Source: Bacilli bacterium
GTDB lineage: Bacteria > Bacillota_I > Bacilli_A > RF39 > UBA660
Direction of reading: 5' to 3'
Assembly: GCA_017432825.1 (NCBI GenBank)
Contig: JAFRIJ010000011.1
Location: forward strand, 172,279 to 236,278
DNA length: 64,000 nt
Part shown: positions 4,343 to 57,077 of the stretch, one piece after another
Numbering within the stretch: the first letter of the stretch is position 1
How the letters are laid out: each line of letters begins with the position of its first letter
Program-made: the position numbers and the translations under genes
Notes under the pieces: model-generated
What the model was told of the DNA's origin: nothing
Databases searched by the model: none
Seen by the model: the letters and a program-made list of their open reading frames with translations, nothing else

Positions 4343-5066
4343 GGAAAAAATTGTACAGTTTTTTAATAATATGTATTATCTATTAGTACAAGACTAATAA
4401 ATAATACAATTATTAAGAACTTTAATAAACATTATCAGTGTTTATTACAATCTCTTATCATTGTGAAGTTTTTCTTTCTTCATAAACAATTGTTTTACTT
4501 AGTGGAGATAAGAATTATATTTCTATAATTTTTCTTTCCTACTGAAGATAGTAAATATAAATTATTATATAATTATTATAGGATAATATTATAATTAATT
4601 AAATAAATTAAGTAATTATATATTATTGAAATAATTATATATACAAAGGGTAATAATAGATTTTATTATTTTTAGTAATAATTTATTATGAGAAATAGAT
4701 TATTATTTATAAATAAATTATAAGTAATAAGGTATTAAATAATAAATTATTGAATAATAAATTATTGTTACCATATAATATTATTTAGATAATAAATTAA
4801 ATAAATAATATTAAGATTTTATATTTTGTATATCTTCTATCTAAGTGTCTTTATTATATCACTAGCATTATATCATGTCAATACTTTTTTAAAAAAAAAT
4901 GTAAAAATTTGTTTATTTTTTTTCCTTTAGAAAACTGTTAGTTAAATAGAGTAAAAAAAGTGCATATTTTATAATAAATGTATTGATTTTCATTTTTTTT
5001 CGTGATATCTTTATGTTGTAAGCATAGATTATAAGTTGCTTATTTATAGATTATGGAGGTATTAAT

Positions 5067-5342: not shown

Positions 5343-5370
5343 AGAGACTTTAAAAAGTCTCTTTTATTTT
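5343..5370. terminator. Bidirectional terminator between the convergent hbs and S24-repressor genes (AGAGACTT/AAGTCTCT)
   Basis: Perfect 8-bp stem flanked by an A-run on one side and a T-run on the other. Confidence 0.55.
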
Positions 5371-6029
5371 ATCTCTCTATATATAGATACAACTTTCCCT
5401 AATATCATATCGTTTGAAATTACATTTACATTTATAGTAGGATATTTAGGATTTAATGCTTGTAATATTATTCCTTTAGGGTATCTATATAATCTTCTTA
5501 CTGATAATACGTTATTTTTGACTGCTATAATTATATCATCACCGTTTTTGTAGTCTTCTTGTTTTTGAAAATATAATTTATCATTTTTAAGATACACTGG
5601 CATCATAGAGTCATCTAGTGCTTTAATATATAATTCGCTTTTGTTTGTTTGAGGTTCATAGGCAGCATTTTTATATGTATTAATTATTTTTTCATTTTGA
5701 GGTGTTAAATTTTTTTCTTTTCTTAAATTTGTTACGTATTCTTTTATTATTTTTTTCTCTATTGTTTGTTGTTCTTCTTTTGATAAAGGAACTTCTTTAA
5801 AACTATCTGTATCAATATTAAAGATATTGCATATTTGTAATAGTATATCATATGGTATGTTTAATTTTCCTGTTTCATATTTATGTAATGTTTGTCTGTT
5901 TTTTTGATAGTTTAGTGCTTTGGCTAAATCCTCTAATGAATAATTGTATTTTTCTCTATTTTCTTTTATTATTCTACTTACTAATGGTTTTAATGAATCA
6001 CTTATTAGTTCTTGTTTTTTTGTCCTCAT
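5364..6029 (-). CDS. XRE-family HTH plus S24 peptidase (LexA/CI-like) autocleaving repressor
   Basis: N-terminal HTH_XRE (LEDLAKALNYQKNRQTLHKYETGK). C-terminal S24 with DDSMMP (Ser nucleophile) and a downstream Lys. RBS AGGAAG sits 8 nt before the ATG at 6029. Confidence 0.7.
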   Translation of the reverse strand: MRTKKQELISDSLKPLVSRIIKENREKYNYSLEDLAKALNYQKNRQTLHKYETGKLNIPYDILLQICNIFNIDTDSFKEVPLSKEEQQTIEKKIIKEYVTNLRKEKNLTPQNEKIINTYKNAAYEPQTNKSELYIKALDDSMMPVYLKNDKLYFQKQEDYKNGDDIIIAVKNNVLSVRRLYRYPKGIILQALNPKYPTINVNVISNDMILGKVVSIYREIK

Positions 6030-6042
6030 AACAATCACTTCC

Positions 6043-11623: not shown

Positions 11624-11650
11624 AGAAGTAGAAATTATTTTTCTACTTCT
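11624..11650. terminator. Bidirectional terminator (11-bp perfect stem AGAAGTAGAAA/TTTCTACTTCT) shared by the convergent PBP and parB-like genes
   Basis: Perfect 11-bp inverted repeat with a 5-nt loop that contains the parB-like stop codon; A/T runs flank it. Confidence 0.6.
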
Positions 11651-12942
11651 ATATTTATTTTATAACTTGTGGCTTCTTCATTTTCTGTAACGTTAATTTT
11701 ATATCCTAATAATTCCATATTTGTAGTAATACTCTTTATCATATTAATAATTGGTGTTATATCTTTGCTTTCTGTATTATTTAAATTTGGAATACTATTT
11801 AAATCAAATTCTGGATTTAATGTTTCGTTAGTTGGTATTGGATTTTCTACATTTATATTTGGATTGATTGATGGTACTTCATTAGGTACTTCCATATTAT
11901 TTAGTCCTGACTCTATTGTTGTTTGTTCTTGATAATTATTTTGAAATGATAGCGGATTTGTCATTGATGGTACCTCATTATAATTACTTTGTTCTACTGA
12001 AGTAGATGATGTTTGATCTGTATTATTAAATGTTGGTATGTTTACTTCAGGACTTGGTGTTGGATCTACATTATTAAATGTTGGTATGTTTGCTTCAGGG
12101 CTTGGTATTGGATTTGCATTATTAAATGCTGGAATATTGGTTTCAGGTGTTGGTTCACTAAAATTTGGAATTGGAGCAGGTTCTACATTAATATTTGGTT
12201 GTATATTATTTAAATCTTGATTTGGTATTTGTTGATTAAGTCCATTCACTATGTTATTTGATTCTTCCATTGATGGAAAAAATCTTCCTCCAAATGCTGG
12301 CTCTGTATTCATTCCTTGTCCTAAATTTTGTTCTAATCCATTATTAATATTGTTATCCATACTTTGATTTTCATTCATTTCTATTCTTTCCCTTCTTATT
12401 TCATTTTTATCTAATTCTGATAAATTAATTATGTCATTATTTATCAAGTTATTATTTACTTCTGTTTCATTGTTTAATGAATTTTTTAATATTTGGTTGC
12501 TATTATTATTATGTTTCTTTATTAATTTTAGTTTTGAATAGATTCTGTCAATTGGAATACCAAGTGTTATACTTAATTTTTCAACATTAGTATTAGGGTA
12601 GGAGATAGCTTTATCATATAATGATGCTTCTTCTTTTCCTGTCAATTCTTTTCTCTGAACATTATTTGTTATAATCATATTTATTGCTTGTTCATCAGTT
12701 ATGTTTTCAACTATAACTGGTACTTTATCCATACCTATACTTTTAGCAGCGTTATACCTTCTATTTCCAATTATTATTTCATATTTATCATCTTTTTTTC
12801 TTACAATTAGTGGTTCTAATATTCCTAATTGTTTTATTGAATTTGCTAGATTATCAATGTTATCATTTTGAAATTCTAGATGAGCATGAAATTCACTGGG
12901 TATTAATTCTGCTATAGGTATATACGTAATTGTATTACCCAT
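11635..12942 (-). CDS. Divergent ParB/Noc-like protein: ParB N-terminal domain plus HTH plus a long Pro/Asn-rich repetitive tail
   Basis: ParB N-domain (ILEPLIVRKKDDKYEIIIGNRRYNAAKSIGMDKVPVIVE) carries GNRR in place of GERR. An HTH follows. About 200 aa of low-complexity repeats (NIPAFNNANPIPSPEANIPTFNNVDPTPSPEVNIPTFNN). Position next to rsmG is as in Clostridia. Confidence 0.7.
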   Translation of the reverse strand: MGNTITYIPIAELIPSEFHAHLEFQNDNIDNLANSIKQLGILEPLIVRKKDDKYEIIIGNRRYNAAKSIGMDKVPVIVENITDEQAINMIITNNVQRKELTGKEEASLYDKAISYPNTNVEKLSITLGIPIDRIYSKLKLIKKHNNNSNQILKNSLNNETEVNNNLINNDIINLSELDKNEIRRERIEMNENQSMDNNINNGLEQNLGQGMNTEPAFGGRFFPSMEESNNIVNGLNQQIPNQDLNNIQPNINVEPAPIPNFSEPTPETNIPAFNNANPIPSPEANIPTFNNVDPTPSPEVNIPTFNNTDQTSSTSVEQSNYNEVPSMTNPLSFQNNYQEQTTIESGLNNMEVPNEVPSINPNINVENPIPTNETLNPEFDLNSIPNLNNTESKDITPIINMIKSITTNMELLGYKINVTENEEATSYKINIEVEK

Positions 12943-19910: not shown

Positions 19911-21665
19911 ATGTTTAAGGAAATAACTGCTATAAGTAAAAATTATGCTATGGTTAGGATAGATGGTACTGTTAGTGATGACTTACTTAATATGAATGTT
20001 ATATTTGAAGATGGTACTAAAAAGATTCTAGGTGAAGTTGAAGAAGTTGATAAAGATCAACTAAAAATTAGTTTTTTGGGTGAATTTATTAATGGTAAAT
20101 TTTTAGGTGGTATTATTAGAAAACCTAGTTTAACTTCTAAAATTAGAATGATTAATCAAGAAGAATTAGGTGAGTTAGTTGGAGATAATGATGATAAGAG
20201 TATGGTTTTAGGTTTATCTCCTTTATATAATAACTATCCTATTAAAATAAATATTGATGAGATGTGGAGTAATCATAGTGCTATATTTGGTAATACTGGT
20301 AGTGGTAAAACATACGGTGTATCTAGATATGTACAAAATTTATTTACTATACCTGATAAAATTCCTTTTAACAGTAACATATTTATATTTAATAATACTG
20401 ATGAATATGATAATGCTTTTAAGAGTATAAATAATTATAATATTAATTTTAATTATAAGATGTATTCAATTAATGGAGATGATAATAGTTGTATTAGACT
20501 TCCATTATGGTTATTATCAGTAGATGATTATGCTAATTTATTGGATGTTACTGAATATTCTCAACTTGCTATAATTGAAAAGATGTTGAGTTTAGTATCT
20601 GCTTTTGCTAAGAAAGATGAAGAATCTAAAAGGTATCAAAATCATTTAATTGCTAGTGCTATTACTTCTGTTTTATATACTAATCAAACTCCTGGTAGAA
20701 TTAGAGATCAGATTTTTCAAATATTGGAAAGCTGTCATACTGAAGAATTAAATTTAGATGTTGAAGTCCCTGGGGTTGGATATACTAGACAATTTAGAAA
20801 ATGCTTTGAAATTGATAGTAAAGGTGAATTTGCAGAAAGAGTTTTAATAGCTGAATATATTCAGAAATTTGTTGATAACAATACTATTTGGAATGAAGAT
20901 TATGTTCCTATATATTTTACTTTATCTGATTTGGAAGTTGCTTTAAACTTTACTTTAATATCTGAGGGATTACTTCTTAATGAAAAGTCTTATTCAGAAG
21001 CTATGGCTCTTAAAGTAAGACTTCATACTTTAAATAATAGTAGTTATAAGAAAATATTTGATTATCCTAGATTTGTTAATATGAATGAATTTATTACTGA
21101 TATTATAATGGTTGGTCAAAATAAAAGAGCGCAAATTATTAATTTTGTTTTAGAAGATATTGACGATAGATTTGCTAAGGCTATTGTTAAGGTATACTGT
21201 AGAATTGTATTTAAATTTAGTAAATCTCTTAAAGAAAGAGGAGCAATGCCTATTCATTTAATGTTAGAAGAAGCTCATAGATATGTACAAAGAGATAATG
21301 ATGTTAATATTTTGGGATATAATATGTTTGAACGAATTGCTAAGGAAGGTAGAAAATTTGGCTTAGTATTAGATTTAATTACTCAAAGACCCACTGAACT
21401 ATCTGAAGCTGTTATATCACAGTGTAGTAACTTTTTAATATTTAAGATTACCCATCCTACTGATTTGGAATATATTAGAAAGATGGTACCTAATATTAGT
21501 GCTGATGTTATTGAAAAGCAAAAAGCTCTTCAATCTGGTACTTGTGTTGCTTTTGGTAGAATGATGAAAATTCCTATGATTGTTAAGATGGAATTACCTA
21601 ATCCTGAGCCTAGAAGTTCTAATGCATCTATCTATAATAAGTGGATGATTGATTGGAAGAAATAA
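19911..21665 (+). CDS. HerA/FtsK-superfamily (DUF87-like) P-loop ATPase, 584 aa, located between rpmH and oriC-dnaA
   Basis: Strong RBS GAGGAGGAG. N-terminal beta-rich domain. Walker A GNTGSGKTYG and Walker B IHLMLEEAHRY. C-terminal LITQRPTELSEAVISQCSNFLIFKITHPTDLEYI is typical of HerA-like ATPases. Confidence 0.8.
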   Translation: MFKEITAISKNYAMVRIDGTVSDDLLNMNVIFEDGTKKILGEVEEVDKDQLKISFLGEFINGKFLGGIIRKPSLTSKIRMINQEELGELVGDNDDKSMVLGLSPLYNNYPIKINIDEMWSNHSAIFGNTGSGKTYGVSRYVQNLFTIPDKIPFNSNIFIFNNTDEYDNAFKSINNYNINFNYKMYSINGDDNSCIRLPLWLLSVDDYANLLDVTEYSQLAIIEKMLSLVSAFAKKDEESKRYQNHLIASAITSVLYTNQTPGRIRDQIFQILESCHTEELNLDVEVPGVGYTRQFRKCFEIDSKGEFAERVLIAEYIQKFVDNNTIWNEDYVPIYFTLSDLEVALNFTLISEGLLLNEKSYSEAMALKVRLHTLNNSSYKKIFDYPRFVNMNEFITDIIMVGQNKRAQIINFVLEDIDDRFAKAIVKVYCRIVFKFSKSLKERGAMPIHLMLEEAHRYVQRDNDVNILGYNMFERIAKEGRKFGLVLDLITQRPTELSEAVISQCSNFLIFKITHPTDLEYIRKMVPNISADVIEKQKALQSGTCVAFGRMMKIPMIVKMELPNPEPRSSNASIYNKWMIDWKK

Positions 21666-21996
21666 ACAGTTTATTGTGGAAAAAAATATTTAATAAAGCT
21701 ATGTTTTTTAAGGCATAGCTTTTTTTTTAACTTATTTGCACATATTTCAACATGTTAAAAAATAGTTTTCCACAGGTACTGTTGTTCGTTAACTGTGGAT
21801 ATTTGTGGATAAGTCCTTTTTTCTTTTATTTTATAAGTCTTTTATTGTTGATAATTAAGTGGAAATACATATATTATTTTTGTTTATTGTTATTTATTTT
21901 CCACATTGAAAAAAATTTGTTACTTTCTAATGAAATATATACACAATTATTTTTTTTATGTTAAAATAACTTTATAAATGTTTTGGAGGTGATGAT
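21666..21996. promoter_or_regulatory. oriC part 1: DnaA-box cluster upstream of dnaA (at least 5 boxes) plus the dnaA promoter region
   Basis: TGTGGAAAA at 21678-21686. TTTTCCACA at 21766-21774 and 21897-21905. TGTGGATAT at 21794-21802. Perfect TGTGGATAA at 21804-21812. Confidence 0.7.
21696..21729 (+). terminator. Rho-independent terminator after the HerA-like gene (AAGCTATG/CATAGCTT plus T8)
   Basis: 8-bp stem followed by TTTTTTTTT. Confidence 0.5.
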
Positions 21997-23385
21997 GTGG
22001 ATATTAATTCTTTATGGAATAATTTTTTAGATAAAATTAAAGAGAATATCTCTTCACTTTCATACGAAACATGGTTTAAGGATACTAAACTAGTTAATCT
22101 TAATGATAATACTGCTACTGTTATTGTTCCTATGCCTTTTCATAAAAAGCATTTGGTAGAAAATTATAAAAATATTATTGAAGATACTTTTTGTAATATT
22201 ACTGGAACTAAATTTAATTTTAATTTTTTATTAGAAGAGGAATGGAATTTAGAGAAGGATTCTATTGAAGAAATTATTTCTTCTTCTAGTTTAAGTAATA
22301 ATAATGATTTAGGCGGTGTGGTTAATCAATCTTATGAAGATGCTAATTTAAATCCTGATTATTCTTTTACTAACTTTATTGTAGGAAACTCTAATAGATT
22401 TGCATATACTGCTTCTATGGCTGTAGCAGAAAAACCTGGTAAAGCTTATAATCCATTGTTTTTATATGGGAAAAGTGGTTTAGGTAAAACTCATCTTATG
22501 CATTCTATTGGTAATTATATTATAGAGAATAGTAATTTAAGAGTTTTATATATTTCAAGTGATAAGTTTGTTAATGATTTTATTAATGCTGTTAGAAGTA
22601 ATGATAAAGATAATTTTGATAAAATTGATTCATTTAAAAATAAATATCGTAATATCGATGTGTTAATGATTGATGATATTCAATTTTTAGGTAATGCTAC
22701 TAAGGGTCAAGAGGAATTTTTTCATACTTTTAATGAATTATATAATTGTAATAAACAGATTGTTATTGCATCTGATAGATCTGTTGATGATTTAAAGATG
22801 TTGGAAAATAGGCTTCTTACTAGGTTTAATTGGGGACTTACTGCTAATATTACTCCTCCTGATTTTGAGCTAAGAATGAATATTATAAGAAAAAAGATAG
22901 CCCATCAAGAGTCTGCTAAAGATGTTCCAGATGAGGTTATAGAATATATTGCTAATAACTTTGCTTCTGATGTTCGTAAGCTGGAGGGTGCTATTACTAG
23001 AGTATTTGCTTACGCTCTTATGATGAATAAGGGTATTGTTGATTTAGATACTGCAGTAGATGCTTTAAAAGATCAGTTAACCGACAGAAGTGTTTATAAA
23101 AACGATATAAATAGAATTCAGACTGTTGTTTGTGATTATTTTAAAATTGATTTAGATGACATGAAGGGTAAAAAAAGGAGTCAAAATATTAATTATCCTA
23201 GACAAGTTGCTATATATTTATGTAGAACTATGGCTAATGAGTCATTTCCTAAGATTGGTACACACTTTGGTGGTAGAGATCATTCTACCATTATGAGTTC
23301 ATATAATAAAATAGAAAGAGATTTAAAAAATAATGAACAATTAAAAGTTGTAATTAATGATTTAAAAAAGATGTTATCAACATAG
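21997..23385 (+). CDS. dnaA: Chromosomal replication initiator protein DnaA
   Basis: AAA+ motifs GKSGLGKTHL and IDDIQFLG; C-terminal DNA-binding domain. GTG start 7 nt after a GGAGG RBS. Confidence 0.97.
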   Translation: MDINSLWNNFLDKIKENISSLSYETWFKDTKLVNLNDNTATVIVPMPFHKKHLVENYKNIIEDTFCNITGTKFNFNFLLEEEWNLEKDSIEEIISSSSLSNNNDLGGVVNQSYEDANLNPDYSFTNFIVGNSNRFAYTASMAVAEKPGKAYNPLFLYGKSGLGKTHLMHSIGNYIIENSNLRVLYISSDKFVNDFINAVRSNDKDNFDKIDSFKNKYRNIDVLMIDDIQFLGNATKGQEEFFHTFNELYNCNKQIVIASDRSVDDLKMLENRLLTRFNWGLTANITPPDFELRMNIIRKKIAHQESAKDVPDEVIEYIANNFASDVRKLEGAITRVFAYALMMNKGIVDLDTAVDALKDQLTDRSVYKNDINRIQTVVCDYFKIDLDDMKGKKRSQNINYPRQVAIYLCRTMANESFPKIGTHFGGRDHSTIMSSYNKIERDLKNNEQLKVVINDLKKMLST

Positions 23386-23521
23386 TGTGTTGAAATTGAT
23401 ACTTGTTATCAACAAGCTTGTGGAAAATAAATCCTTATAATATAAGAGTATAATTAACTTTTCCACAGTTTCCACTCTATAATAATAAATAATTAATATT
23501 AATAAAGAAAGAAGGATTATT
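23386..23521. promoter_or_regulatory. oriC part 2: DnaA boxes plus an AT-rich unwinding element between dnaA and dnaN
   Basis: TTATCAACA at 23406-23414. TGTGGAAAA at 23419-23427. TTTTCCACA at 23459-23467. These are followed by the AT tract TATAATAATAAATAATTAATATTAATAAAG. Confidence 0.65.
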
Positions 23522-24749: not shown

Positions 24750-25226
24750 ATGAAAGAAAAGGTAGATTATGTTATTAATTATGAAACTTTACTTATTATG
24801 CCTTATGAAAATGACAAAAGTAAGGTATATGAATATGATGAAATTTTTATAGTTAATATGAATGTAATGGATATTATTAAGAATAGTTGTTTATTTTTTG
24901 GAAGTTCTTTAGATGGTAGGAAAGAGGGAACTAAGCATTTGATTAGTTGCGAGATGAAGGTACCAATTATTGTTGAGGATAGTGGATTACTTATATTCTT
25001 TCCTACTGGATCTTATAGAAATAAATCTAATATATGGATTTCTTATAATAATATACTTAATTATTCTAAAATAGATAGTAATCATACTATGATATTTTTT
25101 AAAGAAAATAATAATATTTCTATTAATGTTAAGTATAATATTTTAGATAATCAGATTATTAGATGTATTAAATTAGATGCTGTTTTTAATAAAAGAAGAT
25201 TATGTTCAAATTTGAGTGAAAAATAG
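24750..25226 (+). CDS. ComK-family protein (competence transcription factor-like), 158 aa
   Basis: Strong match to recalled B. subtilis ComK. SCLFFGSSLDGRKEGT compares with SCRFFGSSYAGRKAGT. KVPIIVEDSGLLIFFPTGS compares with KPPIMVDPSNQIFLFPTLS. WIS and NQIIRCIKL compare with NQVYRTAWL. RBS is AAGGGGGA. Confidence 0.75.
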   Translation: MKEKVDYVINYETLLIMPYENDKSKVYEYDEIFIVNMNVMDIIKNSCLFFGSSLDGRKEGTKHLISCEMKVPIIVEDSGLLIFFPTGSYRNKSNIWISYNNILNYSKIDSNHTMIFFKENNNISINVKYNILDNQIIRCIKLDAVFNKRRLCSNLSEK

Positions 25227-28379: not shown

Positions 28380-30848
28380 ATGCAAGAAGAATTAAATGAT
28401 AAGAAAATAAGTGTAGATATTGTAGGAGAGATGAAGACATCTTTTCTAGATTATTCTATGAGTGTTATTGTAGCTAGAGCTATTCCTGATGTTAGAGATG
28501 GTTTAAAGCCAGTTCATAGAAGGGTTTTATATACTTTATATGAAGAAGGCATGACTCCTGATAAAAAATATCAAAAGAGTGCTAATGCTGTAGGTGCTGT
28601 TATGGGGCATTACCACCCTCATGGAGATTCTGCAATTTATGATACTATGGTTCGTATGGCACAAGATTTTACATATAGACATTGTTTAGTTGATGGTCAT
28701 GGTAATTTTGGTTCAATTGATGGTTTTGGAGCAGCTGCTTCTCGTTATACAGAAGCAAGACTTGCAAAAATATCTATGGAACTATTAAGAGATTTGCAAA
28801 AAGAAACTGTGGATTTTGACGATAACTATGATGGACAAAGAAAAGAACCGGTTGTTTTACCTAGTAGATTTCCTAATATTTTAGTTAATGGTAATATGGG
28901 AATTGCTGTTGGTATGGCTACTAATATTCCTCCTCATAATTTGGGAGAAGTTATAGATGCATGTGTTGCATATATTGATAATAATGAAATATCTGTTAAT
29001 GAATTAATGCAATTTGTTAAAGGCCCTGATTTTCCAACTGCGGGTATAATTCTTGGAAATAGTGGTATTAGAAGAGCATATGAAACAGGTAGAGGTGCTA
29101 TTACTATTCGTGGTAGAGCTGAAATTGAAGATCATCATGGAAAAGATAGAATAATTATTACAGAGCTTCCTTATCAAATTAATAAAAAAGCCTTAATTAC
29201 TAGAATTGGCGAGCTTGTTAGAGATAAGGTATTAGATGGTATTTCTAATTTAAGTGATGAGTCTGCTTTAGAAGGTATAAAGATTGTTATTGATGTTAAA
29301 AAAGAAGCTAATGCTAATGTTGTTTTAAATAATTTATATAAGCATACTCAGTTACAAACTTCTTATGGTATTAATTTCTTAATGTTAGTTGATGGAAAAC
29401 CTAGAACTCTTGGTTTGAAAGAAATAATTGAAAAGTATATTGAACATCAACGAAATGTTATTTATCGTAGATGTCAATTTGATTTAAGAAAATATAAAGA
29501 TAGATTACATATTTTAGAGGGATTAAAAATTGCTTTAGATAATATTGATAAAGTTATTAAAATTATTAGAGAATCTGAAACTGATGAAATTGCTCAAAAT
29601 GGTCTAATGAATGAATTTGGTTTATCTCAAGCACAAGCACAAGCAATCCTTGAAATGAGATTAAAGAGATTAACAGGATTAGAAAAATCTAAAATTGAAG
29701 ATGAAATTAACGAGTTGTTGCAATTAGTTTCTGAACTTGAAGATATTTTAGCTCATGAGGATAAGATTTTTGAAGTTATAAAGAAGGAAATGTTAGAAAT
29801 AAAAGAAAAATATGCTGATGAGAGAAGAACTTATATTGATATGTCTGCAATAGATTTTATAGATGATGAATCTTTAATTCCTGTGGAAAACTCAGTTTTA
29901 ACTATGACAAAGAATGGCTATATTAAGAGAATGGCTGTTGATACATATAGAACTCAAAATCGTGGTGGCGTAGGTGTTAAAGGTATGTCTACTAATGAAG
30001 AAGACTTTGTGGAAACTATAATTAATACAAGTTCTCATGATGATGTTATGTTCTTTACTAGTAAGGGTAGAGTATTTAGATTAAAAGGTTATGAGGTTCC
30101 TGAATATAGTAGACAATCTAAGGGAATTCCATTAGTTAATTTACTTAATTTAGATAAAGATGAACGTGTTACATCTATTTTAAAATTAAATAGGGAAGAA
30201 GATATTAAAGATTTAGTGTTTGCTACTAAATTTGGTTTAATTAAACGTACTCCTATTGAAGAATTTGATAAAATTAGAACTAATGGCAAAAAAGCTATTA
30301 CTTTAAAAGATAATGATGAGTTAATTGCAGTAAGAAAAACTAATGGTAATAATGAAATATTAATGGCATCAACTAATGGTAGAATGGTTAGATTTAATGA
30401 AGATTGTGTACGTGTTATGGGACGTTCTGCTAGTGGAGTTAAAGGAATTGACCTTAATGGTGGAATTCTTGTAAATATGGATGTTGTTAAGGATAATTGT
30501 GATGTATTTGTTATTACTAAGAATGGTTATGGTAAGAAAACACCAATTGAAGAATATCGTATTACTAATCGTGGTGGAAAAGGTGTTAAGACGTTAAATA
30601 TAACTGAGAAAAATGGAGATATAGTTTCGTTTAATGTTGTATCTGGTGATAATAAAGATTTAATGATTGTTACTGATGAAGGTGTAGTTATTCGAATTGA
30701 TATGTCACAGATATCTACTTTAAGTAGAGTTACTCAAGGTGTTAGACTTATTAATTTAAGAGATGGTCAATTTGTAAGTACTGTTGCAATTATCGATCGA
30801 GATGATTCTATATCTAGTGAGTCTAATGATAATATTGAAAATGTTTAA
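28380..30848 (+). CDS. gyrA: DNA gyrase subunit A
   Basis: Active-site region AMRYTEARL-like (AASRYTEARL); QRDR region HPHGDSAIYD; 822 aa. Confidence 0.97.
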   Translation: MQEELNDKKISVDIVGEMKTSFLDYSMSVIVARAIPDVRDGLKPVHRRVLYTLYEEGMTPDKKYQKSANAVGAVMGHYHPHGDSAIYDTMVRMAQDFTYRHCLVDGHGNFGSIDGFGAAASRYTEARLAKISMELLRDLQKETVDFDDNYDGQRKEPVVLPSRFPNILVNGNMGIAVGMATNIPPHNLGEVIDACVAYIDNNEISVNELMQFVKGPDFPTAGIILGNSGIRRAYETGRGAITIRGRAEIEDHHGKDRIIITELPYQINKKALITRIGELVRDKVLDGISNLSDESALEGIKIVIDVKKEANANVVLNNLYKHTQLQTSYGINFLMLVDGKPRTLGLKEIIEKYIEHQRNVIYRRCQFDLRKYKDRLHILEGLKIALDNIDKVIKIIRESETDEIAQNGLMNEFGLSQAQAQAILEMRLKRLTGLEKSKIEDEINELLQLVSELEDILAHEDKIFEVIKKEMLEIKEKYADERRTYIDMSAIDFIDDESLIPVENSVLTMTKNGYIKRMAVDTYRTQNRGGVGVKGMSTNEEDFVETIINTSSHDDVMFFTSKGRVFRLKGYEVPEYSRQSKGIPLVNLLNLDKDERVTSILKLNREEDIKDLVFATKFGLIKRTPIEEFDKIRTNGKKAITLKDNDELIAVRKTNGNNEILMASTNGRMVRFNEDCVRVMGRSASGVKGIDLNGGILVNMDVVKDNCDVFVITKNGYGKKTPIEEYRITNRGGKGVKTLNITEKNGDIVSFNVVSGDNKDLMIVTDEGVVIRIDMSQISTLSRVTQGVRLINLRDGQFVSTVAIIDRDDSISSESNDNIENV

Positions 30849-30856
30849 TATTTTTA

Positions 30857-30886
30857 AAAGAACTTTTATAGTTCTTTTTATTTTTG
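30857..30886 (+). terminator. Terminator after gyrA (AAAGAACT/AGTTCTTT plus T-run)
   Basis: 8-bp stem, 5-nt loop, TTTTATTTTT tail. Confidence 0.55.
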
Positions 30887-30893
30887 CCTTTGT

Positions 30894-31012
30894 TGTGGAA
30901 AACTCCTTTTTTGTTCTATAATCTGTTTTAAAAATTAAATTTTGCTTATATTTTATTACAAAATTTAATTTTTGAAATTTTATTTTAGTTTTTGCTTGTT
31001 ACTGTGGATAAT
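30894..31012. promoter_or_regulatory. Two additional DnaA boxes downstream of gyrA
   Basis: TGTGGAAAA at 30894-30902. Perfect TGTGGATAA at 31004-31012. Confidence 0.4.
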
Positions 31013-31039: not shown

Positions 31040-31625
31040 ATAAATAATATAATGTTTCACGTGGAACATTATATTTTTTTTATACTTTTATTTTTATATA
31101 TAAAATATGTAATATTAATATTTAATATATATTATGCAATTCATTATGTTTCACGTGAAACTATATTTTAATTAAATTCTAAAATATTCTTTTTATAATT
31201 AATAATTTTAATTAACTCTTTACTTTTTATATTTATTATTTTAATTTGATATATTTTCTGTATAATGTTTCACGTGAAACATTAAAATTTTTTATTTAAT
31301 TTTTTTATACTTTTTATTTTTATATAAAATATGTAATATTAATATTTAATATATATATTATGCGATTCATTATGTTTTACGTGGAACTATATTTTAATTC
31401 AATTCTAAAATATTCTTTTTATAATTAATAATTTGTAATTAACTCTTTACTTTTTATGTTTATTATTTTAATTTGATATATTTTCTGTATAATGTTTCAC
31501 GTGGAACATTAAAATTTTTTTATACTTTTTATTTTTATATAAAATATGTAATATTAATATTTAATATATATTATGCGATTCATTATGTTTCACGTGAAAC
31601 TATAAAATTATATTACTATTTTAAT
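31040..31625. repeat. Tandem direct repeat, about 213-227 bp unit with about 2.7 copies. Each unit carries two long palindromes built on CACGTG. X-type is TAATGTTTCACGTGRAACATTA (perfect 22-bp copy at 31263-31284). Y-type is ATGTTTCACGTGAAAC.
   Basis: X cores at 31052-31069, 31265-31282 and 31492-31509. Y cores at 31146-31161, 31372-31387 and 31585-31600. Units align with under 10% divergence. A TATAAT hexamer directly abuts each X palindrome. Confidence 0.8.
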
Positions 31626-31714: not shown

Positions 31715-31743
31715 TTGATTATTTATAATTTTAATGATATAAT
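31715..31743 (+). promoter_or_regulatory. Sigma-A promoter for the SRP RNA gene (TTGATT, 17-nt spacer, TATAAT)
   Basis: TTGATT at 31715-31720; 17-nt spacer; TATAAT at 31738-31743. Predicted TSS at about 31750. Confidence 0.55.
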
Positions 31744-31749
31744 TTGTTT

Positions 31750-31826
31750 GATGCAACAATAATGCTGTGGAACCAAGTCAGGATTGGAAGATAGCAGCTT
31801 TAACATAGTTTATTGTGTGCATCTTT
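31750..31826 (+). ncRNA. ffs: Signal recognition particle RNA (small 4.5S-type, about 77 nt)
   Basis: Conserved domain IV AAGUCAGGAUUGGAAGAUAGCAGC compares with E. coli AGGUCAGGUCCGGAAGGAAGCAGC. 5' GAUGCAACAAUAA pairs with 3' UUAUUGUGUGCAUC. A U-run terminator follows. Position upstream of dnaX is as in Bacillus. Confidence 0.7.
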
Positions 31827-31938
31827 TTTTTATATTATTAACCGAACGAACGTTTATTTATTTAGAGAAATATATTTTTATTGTTTATTTGTTTGCTTTT
31901 TTATGATATAATATTTTTAGTTTTAGGTAGGTGGTTTT

Positions 31939-33576
31939 ATGAGTTATTTAGCATTATATAGAAAATATAGACCGAGTTCTTTTGATGATCTTGTTGGGCA
32001 GCATGAAATTGCTACTATTATTAAAAATGAAATTTTAAATGATAGAATATCTCATGCTTATTTGTTTTCTGGTCCTCGTGGTACTGGTAAAACTTCTACT
32101 GCTAAGATTATTGCTAAAATGATTAATTGTCATAATTTGGGTATTGATGGTATTCCATGCGGTAAGTGTGAATCTTGTTTAAATGTTAATAATAATGATG
32201 TTGTTGAGATTGATGCTGCTTCTAATAATGGTGTTGATGAAATCAGGGAATTAAGAGATAAAGTTAATTTGGTACCTACTTATGGTAAATATAAGGTTTA
32301 TATTATAGATGAAGTTCATATGCTTACTACGCAAGCTTTTAATGCTTTATTAAAGACTTTAGAAGAACCTCCTAAACATGCGGTTTTTATTTTAGCAACT
32401 ACTGAATTTTATAAAATTCCTGCTACTGTAGTATCTAGATGCCAAAAATTTCAATTTTTAAAGTTTAATATTGATGATATTGTTGATAGATTAAAAAAAA
32501 TATGTAAGTTAGAGAAAATTAAAGTTAATGATGATATTTTGTATGAAATAGCTAGATTATCTGATGGTGGATTAAGAGATGCGATAAATATGCTAGATCA
32601 ACTTTCTTCATTTAAAGATGGTAAATTTGAATTAAATGATGTTTATAAATTAAATGGTGTTGTTTCTTTTGAAGATATTTCTAAATTAATTATATATATT
32701 CTAAATAATGATATTAAAAATATTGTTTTATTTGTGGATAATTTAAATAGATTAGGTATTAATTTAGATAAGTTTTTATATGATGTTGTAGATTATTTAA
32801 AAGATATTCTTATATATAAATCTATTTTGAATGATTCTTCTTATGGTGGTGTTAAACTTGAAAGTATTAAAAATATTTATAATTTGATTGATTATGAATT
32901 TTTATATAAATGTATTAATTCTTTTAATGACATATTAAATAAGGTTAGAAATTCTGGGTTCCCTATTATTGTTTTGACTACTAATTTAATTTGTTTATCT
33001 AATTCTTTTAAAAAAAGTGATTTTATTGTTAAAAATGATGAACTAGTTGTTGAAAAAGAAAAAAATTCTACTAATGATACTGTTATTGATAATGTTTCTA
33101 ATAATAAATTATTTATTGATAAAAAGGTTAGGATTAATAATACTTTTGCTACAGCGTCTAAGATTAATAAAGAAAATGTTGTTTCTAAATGGACTTTATT
33201 AAAAGAGAGTATTATTAATGATTCTAAATATAATTCTTTGATTGGAATTTTTGATGATATAGATGTTATGGCTGTTGGAGATAATAATATAATTTTGTCT
33301 GTTAAATATGATTCTTTATTAGATAGGATATATAATTATTTGTATGATTTTGAAGAATGTATTACTAATTTTTTTAGTAATAATTATAAAGTTGTTTTTC
33401 TTGCTAATGATGAATGGGAATTTGAAAAGAAGATGTATATTGATAATATTAAAAATGGGAAAAAATATACTTATATTGAAGAAGTTGTTGAAAAAAATGA
33501 TGATAATGTTTATACTAATAGTGATGTTGATAAACTTATTTCTATTGTTGGAAATGATGTTATTACATATAAATAA
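31939..33576 (+). CDS. dnaX: DNA polymerase III subunit tau/gamma
   Basis: AAA+ motif GPRGTGKTS; zinc module CGKCESC; RBS GGTAGGTGG; 545 aa. Confidence 0.95.
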   Translation: MSYLALYRKYRPSSFDDLVGQHEIATIIKNEILNDRISHAYLFSGPRGTGKTSTAKIIAKMINCHNLGIDGIPCGKCESCLNVNNNDVVEIDAASNNGVDEIRELRDKVNLVPTYGKYKVYIIDEVHMLTTQAFNALLKTLEEPPKHAVFILATTEFYKIPATVVSRCQKFQFLKFNIDDIVDRLKKICKLEKIKVNDDILYEIARLSDGGLRDAINMLDQLSSFKDGKFELNDVYKLNGVVSFEDISKLIIYILNNDIKNIVLFVDNLNRLGINLDKFLYDVVDYLKDILIYKSILNDSSYGGVKLESIKNIYNLIDYEFLYKCINSFNDILNKVRNSGFPIIVLTTNLICLSNSFKKSDFIVKNDELVVEKEKNSTNDTVIDNVSNNKLFIDKKVRINNTFATASKINKENVVSKWTLLKESIINDSKYNSLIGIFDDIDVMAVGDNNIILSVKYDSLLDRIYNYLYDFEECITNFFSNNYKVVFLANDEWEFEKKMYIDNIKNGKKYTYIEEVVEKNDDNVYTNSDVDKLISIVGNDVITYK

Positions 33577-55274: not shown

Positions 55275-55408
55275 AGTAATGCCTCCTTTTTGGATAATAT
55301 TATAACAAAATATTTATTTAATAGCAAAACAAATATTTATTTCTTTTTACTTTATTTTTCCTTTAAAATTTGATACAATGTATCTTGTAGGAGATAAAGG
55401 TGAGTTTG

Positions 55409-56224
55409 ATGGGAAAAATAATTGCAATAGTAAACCAAAAAGGTGGAGTAGGTAAAACTACCACTAGTATTAATTTAGCAGCATCTTTGGGTATTTTAAA
55501 GAAGAAAGTATTACTAGTTGATTTAGATCCTCAAGGAAATGCTACTACAGGTATTGGTATTGATAAGGGAAGTTTAAATAGTAGTGTTTATGAAGTTATG
55601 ATTATGAAAACTAGTATTGAAGATGCAATTATTAAGACCAAAAGTAAAAATGTTAGTATTTTACCAGCTTATTTAAATTTAGCTGGTGTGGATATGGAAT
55701 TAATTGAATTAGAAAAGCAATATCATGCTGAAGGTAAGAGATTAAATAGGGTTTTAAGACTTAAAGAGGAGTTATCTAAGGTAAAAGATAGGTATGATTT
55801 TATTTTAATTGATTGTCCTCCTTCTTTGGGAATTTTAACTACAAATGCATTAGGTGCTAGTGATAGTGTACTTATACCTGTTCAATGTGAATATTTTGCA
55901 TTAGAGGGAATAATGCAATTAATTAATACAATTATGTTGGCTCAAAAGAAAGTTAATCCTAATTTGGAAATTGAAGGAGTTTTACTTACTATGCTTACTA
56001 CTAATACAAATTTGGGTTTAGAAGTTGTTGAAAGTATAAAAGGATTTTTTAAAGAAAGAGTTTATGATACTATAATTCCTAGACTTATTAGATTGGCGGA
56101 GGCACCATCTCATGGTAAACCTATATTAGAGTATGAACCTAGAAGTAGAGGGACTTTGGCATATTTAAATTTAGCTAAGGAGGTAATAGAAAAGAATGGA
56201 ACAAAAAAAGAAAGCATTGGGTAA
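55409..56224 (+). CDS. soj: ParA-family chromosome partitioning ATPase Soj
   Basis: Sequence [19 protein letters not shown] with the deviant Walker A; 272 aa. RBS GGAG precedes it. Confidence 0.9.
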
Positions 56225-57077
56225 GGGGTTAGAACAATTATTTAGTAGTGAGGTTTTGGATTTTGATTCTTTTGAAGATAGAATAATGGAGAATGCTAAG
56301 GAATCTGATATTTTTGAAATTCCTGTTAATGAAGTTAGGCCTAATCCTTTTCAGCCTAGAAAAAAATTTGATAATGAGTCTTTAGAAGAATTAGCTACTT
56401 CAATTAAAAATTATGGTGTGTTTCAACCAATAATTGTTAAGAAAAGTATTAAAGGATATGATTTGGTAGCGGGAGAAAGAAGACTAAGGGCATCTAAAAT
56501 GGCTGGATTATCAAATATTCCTGCTATAATTAAAGATTTTAACGATGAAGAAATGAGAGAAATTGCATTGTTAGAAAATCTTCAAAGAGAGGATTTGTCT
56601 GCAGTTGAGTTAGCGTGGGCTTATAAGGGTATTATTGATAGTTTGCATATCACGCAAGATGACCTTGCTTCTAGATTGGGAAAAAGCAGGAGTAGCGTTA
56701 CAAATATTTTAGGTTTATTAAGACTTCCTTCAGAAGTTCAGAATATGGTTATTGATAATAAAATTTCTATGGGACATGCTAGAGTTTTGTCTAAAATAGA
56801 AGATGTTAATAAAATAAAAGAATTATCTAAGAAGGTTATTAATGATAATTTGAGTGTTAGGGATTTAGAGGATTTGTCTAATTCTTCAGAAATAAAGAAA
56901 AAAGTTCCTATTAAAAGAACTGTTAAAAATAATTCTGATTATTTATATATTGAGAATAGAATGAAAGAGATATTAGGAACAAAAGTTAAGATTGATAGTA
57001 AGAAGATAGAAATTCATTATAGTTCTTCTGACGATTTAACTAGAATCTTAGATATGTTAAATATAAAAGTTGATTAA
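56196..57077 (+). CDS. spo0J: ParB-family chromosome partitioning protein Spo0J
   Basis: ParB box with canonical [15 protein letters not shown] (GERRxRA) and an HTH; translationally coupled to soj with a 29-nt overlap. Confidence 0.9.

Follow-up and report, generated by a model that had tools for sequence, protein, structure and literature searches.

The window, by which we mean the whole 64-kb stretch of DNA analysed, is the replication-origin region of a member of the Bacillota with a GC content of about 24%. Its minus strand carries, in this order, rnpA, yidC, jag, mnmE, mnmG and rsmG, and its plus strand dnaA, dnaN, comK, recF, gyrB and gyrA. The proteins SpoIVA, SpoVT and YabG, all encoded here, mark the host as a spore-former. 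The GC-skew minimum falls near 18-20 kb of the window, and two clusters of DnaA boxes flank dnaA and mark the oriC region (Table 1). An open reading frame for a HerA/DUF87-like ATPase of 584 residues (19911-21665, plus strand) is found between rnpA and dnaA, shortly before the first of these clusters. Such a gene is unusual in the rpmH-dnaA interval; its NCBIfam matches are to anti-phage-associated HerA and fall below the cut-offs. Elsewhere, an Rfam PGK RNA motif (4425-4519, minus strand, 75.5 bits) is found downstream of spoIVA, and a LexA-like protein with HTH_3 and Peptidase_S24 domains (5364-6038, minus strand), which may be an SOS repressor or a prophage-type repressor, adjoins a Vut_1 transporter.

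The locus under study (31040-31625) lies inside the 1,090-bp gap between gyrA and dnaX, which has a GC content of 16%. Directly 3' of gyrA, folding predicts a hairpin followed by a T-run, which is likely to be the intrinsic terminator of this gene; a consensus terminator scan, which demands at least three GC pairs, made no call at this position. On the other side of the locus lies ffs, the gene for the small SRP RNA, with a promoter-like sequence about 110 bp downstream of the end of a tandem array. Since the array is placed between the terminator-like hairpin and the ffs promoter, its DNA is probably not transcribed and probably receives no read-through from gyrA. Past the gyrA terminator and before the first array site, there are two DnaA boxes, one perfect (31003-31011, minus strand) and one with a single mismatch (30894-30902, minus strand). 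The idea that they form a DnaA-ParB coupling element was dropped, no boxes being conserved in the gaps of relatives, and we treat them as incidental.

The array contains six 16-bp palindromes (31053-31601) that match the parS consensus TGTTNCACGTGAAACA with 0, 1, 0, 2, 0 and 1 mismatches, respectively, on the better strand. Three of the six match TGTTNCACGTGAAACA exactly, and the site at 31266 alone is fully symmetric, reading TGTTTCACGTGAAACA. The outer A is replaced by T in two of the sites, and the site at 31373 is degenerate. Each 226-bp unit of the array holds two parS sites, an X-type TATAATGTTTCACGTGRAACATTA and a Y-type TTCATTATGTTTCACGTGAAACTATA. As estimated from dinucleotide-preserving shuffles of the window, chance matches to TGTTNCACGTGAAACA with at most two mismatches are expected at 0.02 per 64 kb, and none of 100 shuffles reached the observed number. 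At this threshold, the 64-kb window contains no other parS outside the array. Raising the limit to three mismatches adds one poor match in the window, inside mnmG, and the additional same-species flanks (10 kb on the left and 3.4 kb on the right) hold no further parS, which brings the DNA of this species scanned to about 78 kb in all. All but one of the window's six CACGTG hexamers fall in the array. At the bases that discriminate parS from the Noc site (discriminating bases and consensus from PMC7383237), the array sites read G and A, as against A and C in the Noc site; they are of the parS type TGTTTCAC and not of the Noc type TATTTCCC. The window contains no Noc-type site TATTTCCCGGGAAATA at up to two mismatches. 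Judged by their sequence, the six palindromes are very probably parS sites, an identity that is well supported.

Table 1. Features of the origin region discussed in the text, with positions in the window.
Feature	Position	Strand	Description
ParB_N paralogue	11635-12942	-	435 aa, directly after rsmG/gidB, in the usual noc position
oriC region	21675-21996 and 23374-23467		DnaA-box clusters flanking dnaA (21997-23385)
gyrA	28380-30848	+	Pfam; left flank of the gap
Hairpin then T-run 3' of gyrA	30856-30878	+	Folding, 9-bp stem, -8.8 kcal/mol, z=-2.2
Tandem array	31048-31604		TRF: 226-bp unit x2.6, 87% matches; repeat search agrees
parS-1	31053-31068		TGTTTCACGTGGAACA, 0 mismatches on the minus strand
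parS-2	31147-31162		TGTTTCACGTGAAACT, 1 mismatch, outermost base
parS-3	31266-31281		TGTTTCACGTGAAACA, perfect, fully symmetric consensus
parS-4	31373-31388		TGTTTTACGTGGAACT, 2 mismatches, degenerate; within the unit absent from other assemblies
parS-5	31493-31508		TGTTTCACGTGGAACA, 0 mismatches
parS-6	31586-31601		TGTTTCACGTGAAACT, 1 mismatch
Promoter-like sequence	31715-31743	+	TTGATT-17-TATAAT with upstream TG; ends 2 nt before the SRP RNA
Small SRP RNA (ffs)	31745-31831	+	Rfam; immediately right of the array
dnaX	31939-33576	+	Pfam; right flank of the gap
parA/soj	55400-56224	+	KGGVGKT (deviant Walker A); presumed ATPase partner
parB/spo0J	56196-57077	+	293 aa, ParB_N + HTH_ParB + ParB_C; presumed reader of the array

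Exact-protein look-ups identified the same species in several ENA metagenome assemblies. In two of these (L087, 3126-4000, and L088, 1745-2607), the gap is identical to that of the window except for about one missing unit, leaving four sites in each; the unit-length deletions measure 215 and 227 bp, respectively, and differ in their breakpoints. Two further contigs start between the array and dnaX, L089 at 348 bp and L090 at 252 bp before dnaX, which is consistent with assembly breaking at the array. Every same-species assembly that spans the gap has four sites or more, and the difference between four and six may be a real polymorphism or may reflect collapse during short-read assembly. The first-pass annotation had described the locus as a cluster of six perfect parS matches about 9 kb from oriC. 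The distance stands, as the DnaA-box clusters are 7.6-9.4 kb from the array, which puts the array in the origin-proximal domain expected of a chromosomal parS. The perfect match holds for the three exact sites, but not for the two sites with one mismatch and the one site with two. There are indeed six sites in the window, but this is a strain- or assembly-dependent count, because the two other same-species assemblies hold four.

The parA and parB genes of the window are located between tilS and serS; dnaA is 33 kb away and the array 24 kb. The ParB protein contains the motifs LGKGL, GERRLRA, ENLQRE and GKSR...SMGH, and it matches both the N-terminal and HTH domains of Bacillus subtilis Spo0J (6SDK, E=5e-61) and the Helicobacter pylori Spo0J-parS complex (4UMK, E=8e-55). 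The B. subtilis Spo0J sequence used for alignment agrees with the 6SDK residues that appear in this match. In this alignment, the window ParB has R and G (GKSR...SMGH) at the positions equivalent to R173 and G201 of Caulobacter ParB, as does Spo0J. In Caulobacter ParB these two residues contact parS, and they are Q and R in Noc (Jalal et al., PMC7383237). The ParB of the window combines a parS-type HTH with a CTP-binding motif, and a presumed ParA partner is encoded as well.

Relatives were collected by a DnaX-seeded contig search, which returned no close relative; the best matches were uncultured 'Bacilli bacterium' MAGs with DnaX proteins 38-45% identical to that of the window. The first-pass annotation had left it to relatives to show whether this locus carries single or multiple parS, and the answer is multiple: 12 divergent low-GC Bacilli MAG loci have 2-8 parS upstream of ffs-dnaX (Table 2). 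Ten of the 12 reach gyrA, and there the parS sites lie in the same gyrA-ffs-dnaX gap (2-7 sites). These ten share the gene order dnaA-dnaN-comK-recF-gyrB-gyrA-gap-dnaX-ybaB-recR-holB, their GyrA proteins are 59-65% identical to that of the window, and Rfam places the SRP RNA between the array and dnaX in all six relatives checked. A further syntenic locus (L001) has a single, degenerate site with two mismatches in the gap, so the cluster is not universal. In none of the relatives is a ParA or ParB encoded less than 10 kb from the array. The comK homologue, found in the window between dnaN and recF (24750-25226, plus strand), occupies the same place in all array-bearing relatives whose contigs reach it (L002, L003, L005, L007, L010, L014, L019, L023, L041 and L074) and is a synteny marker of the lineage.

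Table 2. parS sites (at most two mismatches) and repeat units in the gap upstream of dnaX in the window and its relatives.
Locus	Sites in gap	TRF unit containing parS
Window	6	226 bp x2.6
L002	4	None
L003	6	None
L005	5	None
L007	5	167 bp x3.3
L010	2	None
L014	3	None
L019	5	44 bp x3.4
L023	2	None
L041	6	126 bp x5.6, also called 250 bp x2.8
L074	7	44 bp x3.6
L011 (begins inside gap)	6	62 bp x6.7
L054 (begins inside gap)	8	124 bp x1.9

Outside the gaps, about 250 kb of the relatives' loci contain only five parS sites, all of them inside dnaX of L019 (11068 and 11137) and L074 (11101, 11146 and 11191). These sites are perfect, lie 45-69 bp apart and fall in a variable linker, where they are translated in frame as (N/D)V(S/P)RET. 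On this evidence, the linker coding sequence of the two genomes appears to double as putative centromere sites beside the intergenic array.

We compared the sites themselves in a logo of 65 sites, which has information in A-TGTTYCACGTGRAACA-T only and reaches background beyond ±3 bp. The core of this logo is partly circular, since the sites were picked by their match to the consensus, but that choice affects neither the flanking positions nor the conservation of location. The flanking A/T lies outside the search pattern, yet it is conserved in 125 of 130 cases (96%), so that the conserved palindrome comprises 18 bp. Between genomes, the flanks, the spacing and the unit length (44-250 bp) all differ, and L002, L003, L005 and L014 have non-repetitive spacers and irregular spacing. 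Similarity of the arrays across genomes is confined to 22-30 bp around each palindrome. Because the palindrome is conserved while flanks and spacers have diverged, and the address is kept while the repeat unit is not, we interpret this pattern, seen across the 12 relatives, as evidence of selection for a site at which a protein binds. The same comparison indicates that the arrays expand and contract independently in different genomes.

The parS sites of B. subtilis are dispersed around the origin region, with one inside spo0J, and its soj-spo0J genes adjoin noc/gidB. The window shares with the B. subtilis Spo0J-Soj system the 16-bp palindrome TGTTNCACGTGAAACA, the ParB motifs, the origin-proximal sites, a Soj-type ParA and a spore-forming host. 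It differs in having four to six sites in 550 bp of intergenic DNA and none in parB, and in the location of parAB between tilS and serS. The number of parS sites is about 10 in B. subtilis (PMC7022226), four near oriC in Pseudomonas aeruginosa (parS1-4; PMC7022226, PMC4368675) and ten in Corynebacterium glutamicum (PMC7083940). The array resembles those of P. aeruginosa and C. glutamicum, and gidB-parA clusters, in that close consensus parS sites form one loading zone. However, known multi-parS clusters usually abut parAB, whereas the cluster of this lineage is found at gyrA-ffs. In Myxococcus xanthus, about 3 kb of DNA located some 4 kb upstream of parA hold 22-24 parS sites (PMC3899335, PMC3778016). 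M. xanthus is thus similar in its dense chromosomal parS near the origin at roughly 140-bp spacing, and its sites bind ParB in vitro. In contrast to the array, it belongs to the high-GC Myxococcota and has more sites, near parA, whereas the array consists of recent tandem units 24 kb from parAB.

We also scanned metagenomes for two perfect parS sites 41-71 bp apart and found at least 120 contigs, a scan that was built to find pairs and shows their existence in many lineages, not their frequency. The 80 contigs examined have GC contents of 27-71%, and where neighbours were recognisable the pairs mostly lie in the rsmG-parA gap or directly upstream of parA-parB. These comparisons bear on two points of the first-pass annotation. 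That the palindromes resemble parS and lie near oriC is borne out, as far as sequence can tell, by the consensus match, the chance statistics, the presence of ParA and ParB in the window and the relatives. The view that clustered or tandem parS is unusual was overstated given M. xanthus and the metagenome pairs; this premise falls because tight parS pairs exist in many lineages, and within the present lineage the cluster appears to be the rule and not a one-off duplication. The further suggestion in that annotation, that the array might compensate for the displaced soj-spo0J, is not supported by these data: parAB is indeed distant from the array in the window, and the relatives likewise have no ParA or ParB close to theirs, but neither observation establishes a cause. 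What sets the lineage apart is the address of its cluster, at gyrA-ffs and away from parAB, together with its turnover by tandem amplification.

Taken together, the sequence comparisons make it highly probable that this array of four to six parS sites serves the host as its origin-proximal chromosomal centromere, or as a major part of it. With about 78 kb of the genome scanned, it may also be that other parS sites lie elsewhere and that the array is not the main centromere. In the proposed mechanism, dimers of Spo0J/ParB would recognise each 16-18-bp palindrome through their helix-turn-helix. In established work (PMC7053999, PMC8494293), nucleation of ParB at parS is followed by closure into a CTP-dependent clamp, which then slides onto flanking DNA. 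By analogy with the ParBs studied, the ParB of the window would bind CTP, close into a clamp and slide onto neighbouring DNA. Each parS site would act as a loading gate, and several gates side by side would raise the local ParB density, so that a dense partition complex of ParB could form over the adjacent loading sites, about 8-9 kb from oriC. Known ParB-parS complexes recruit SMC and stimulate ParA (PMC7333895). The partition complex of the window would likewise be expected to interact with ParA/Soj for origin segregation and, as in Bacillus-type systems, to recruit SMC. We infer ParB binding, CTP-dependent spreading, SMC recruitment and a dosage benefit of several sites for this system. The array itself would gain and lose parS units by tandem duplication and deletion, independently in each genome, with selection keeping the palindrome alone.

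As to why there are several sites, magnetic-tweezers experiments found that the ParB-dependent condensation force rises with parS number and that 5-7 sites are needed for condensation (PMC8299390). In vivo, a single parS is enough in several species (PMC7022226), and multiplicity therefore probably reflects robustness or dosage rather than necessity.

The sites might instead serve mainly as ParB operators for ffs/dnaX, in place of or alongside segregation. Such a role would fit the closeness of the array end to the ffs promoter, the two sites that L019 and L074 have 76-120 bp upstream of dnaX in addition to those inside the gene, and the repression of neighbouring genes by P. aeruginosa ParB at intergenic parS (parS3/parS4; PMC7022226). 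However, loss of Spo0J in B. subtilis left the expression of parS-adjacent genes unchanged (PMC7022226), the distance and orientation between array and ffs vary among genomes, and 2-8 sites across up to 1 kb exceed what an operator needs. Promoter-like matches are also not enriched in the array (21 compared to 15.7 ± 3.5 in shuffles). We therefore consider it improbable that regulation is the main role, and an ffs/dnaX operator is possible as an added function that is not needed to account for the data. Nor is a different reader at all likely, although the window encodes a second ParB-family protein, the 435-residue ParB_N paralogue, that retains part of an HTH and might, like some other CACGTG-binding factor, be proposed to bind the array. 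Its arginine patch reads GNRRYNAA in place of GERRxRA, and I stands at the equivalent of R173, the parS-contacting residue that touches a guanine. The partial or degenerate HTH has Noc-like K at the equivalents of 179 and 184 and is without the SMGH helix that carries G201, and the tail comprises an N/P-rich low-complexity region of about 250 residues and then a short C-terminal domain. The canonical ParB, in contrast, has all parS-reading features, and the consensus seen in the array is exactly the one to which 17 ParBs bound when tested (PMC7383237). On its HTH residues we rejected the paralogue as reader of the array; by its sequence, it may be a divergent Noc derivative.

Two further readings concern the origin of the repeats. 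In having iterated units, each with its inverted repeat, the array recalls plasmid centromeres, for instance sopC of plasmid F, which is built of tandem units, variable in number, with one palindrome each for a ParB-family protein. Yet sopC belongs with another branch of the protein family, has another site sequence and is plasmid-borne, and the array is not a sopC-like centromere on a mobile replicon beside its own parAB. It is extremely improbable that the array descends from the partition centromere of a plasmid or phage that once integrated here. Blastn of the array against the 72,556 plasmids of PLSDB gave short AT-rich matches only, its neighbours gyrA, ffs and dnaX are housekeeping genes with no mobile-element gene among them, synteny of the locus extends to twelve divergent genomes, and the palindromes follow the parS consensus of chromosomes. 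The repeats might also be a minisatellite, neutral and AT-rich, or a product of assembly, with an accidental likeness to parS. This reading could account for copy numbers that vary among assemblies, for contigs that break at the array and for a gap GC of only 16%. It would leave unexplained a GC-rich 16-mer that occurs six times in such DNA, far beyond chance, the four or more sites in every gap-spanning assembly, and the palindrome kept in relatives with unrelated, often non-repetitive spacers, and we regard it as very unlikely.

Returning to the centromere, a more far-reaching version can be put forward tentatively, as a possibility that we hold to be somewhat less probable than its opposite. 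Here, the centromere of the lineage would have been consolidated into one intergenic parS array at gyrA-ffs, uncoupled from parAB and subject to fast turnover by tandem amplification, a plasmid-like iterated centromere that acts as the sole or dominant chromosomal ParB loading zone. If the consolidated centromere were true, the lineage would offer a natural series for relating the copy number and spacing of parS to the tuning of ParB loading. The relatives, with 2-8 sites at spacings of about 44 to 240 bp in one homologous locus, form a comparative series for loading of the ParB-CTP clamp. The result gives the probable location of the centromere for a lineage of uncultured gut Bacilli, and it indicates that the array is conserved and selected, and is no chance duplication. 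It introduces no new mechanism, as the site, the protein and clustered parS are all already established; we regard it as a clear but fairly ordinary finding of modest comparative interest.

Very dense parS clusters were also observed in metagenome contigs from unrelated bacteria. One contig of 35% GC carries 15 parS in about 1 kb upstream of dnaA (L111, 1044-2040), another has seven parS upstream of parA (L113, 446-1030), and a third has six parS spaced 32-37 bp apart after gidB (L134, 780-965).
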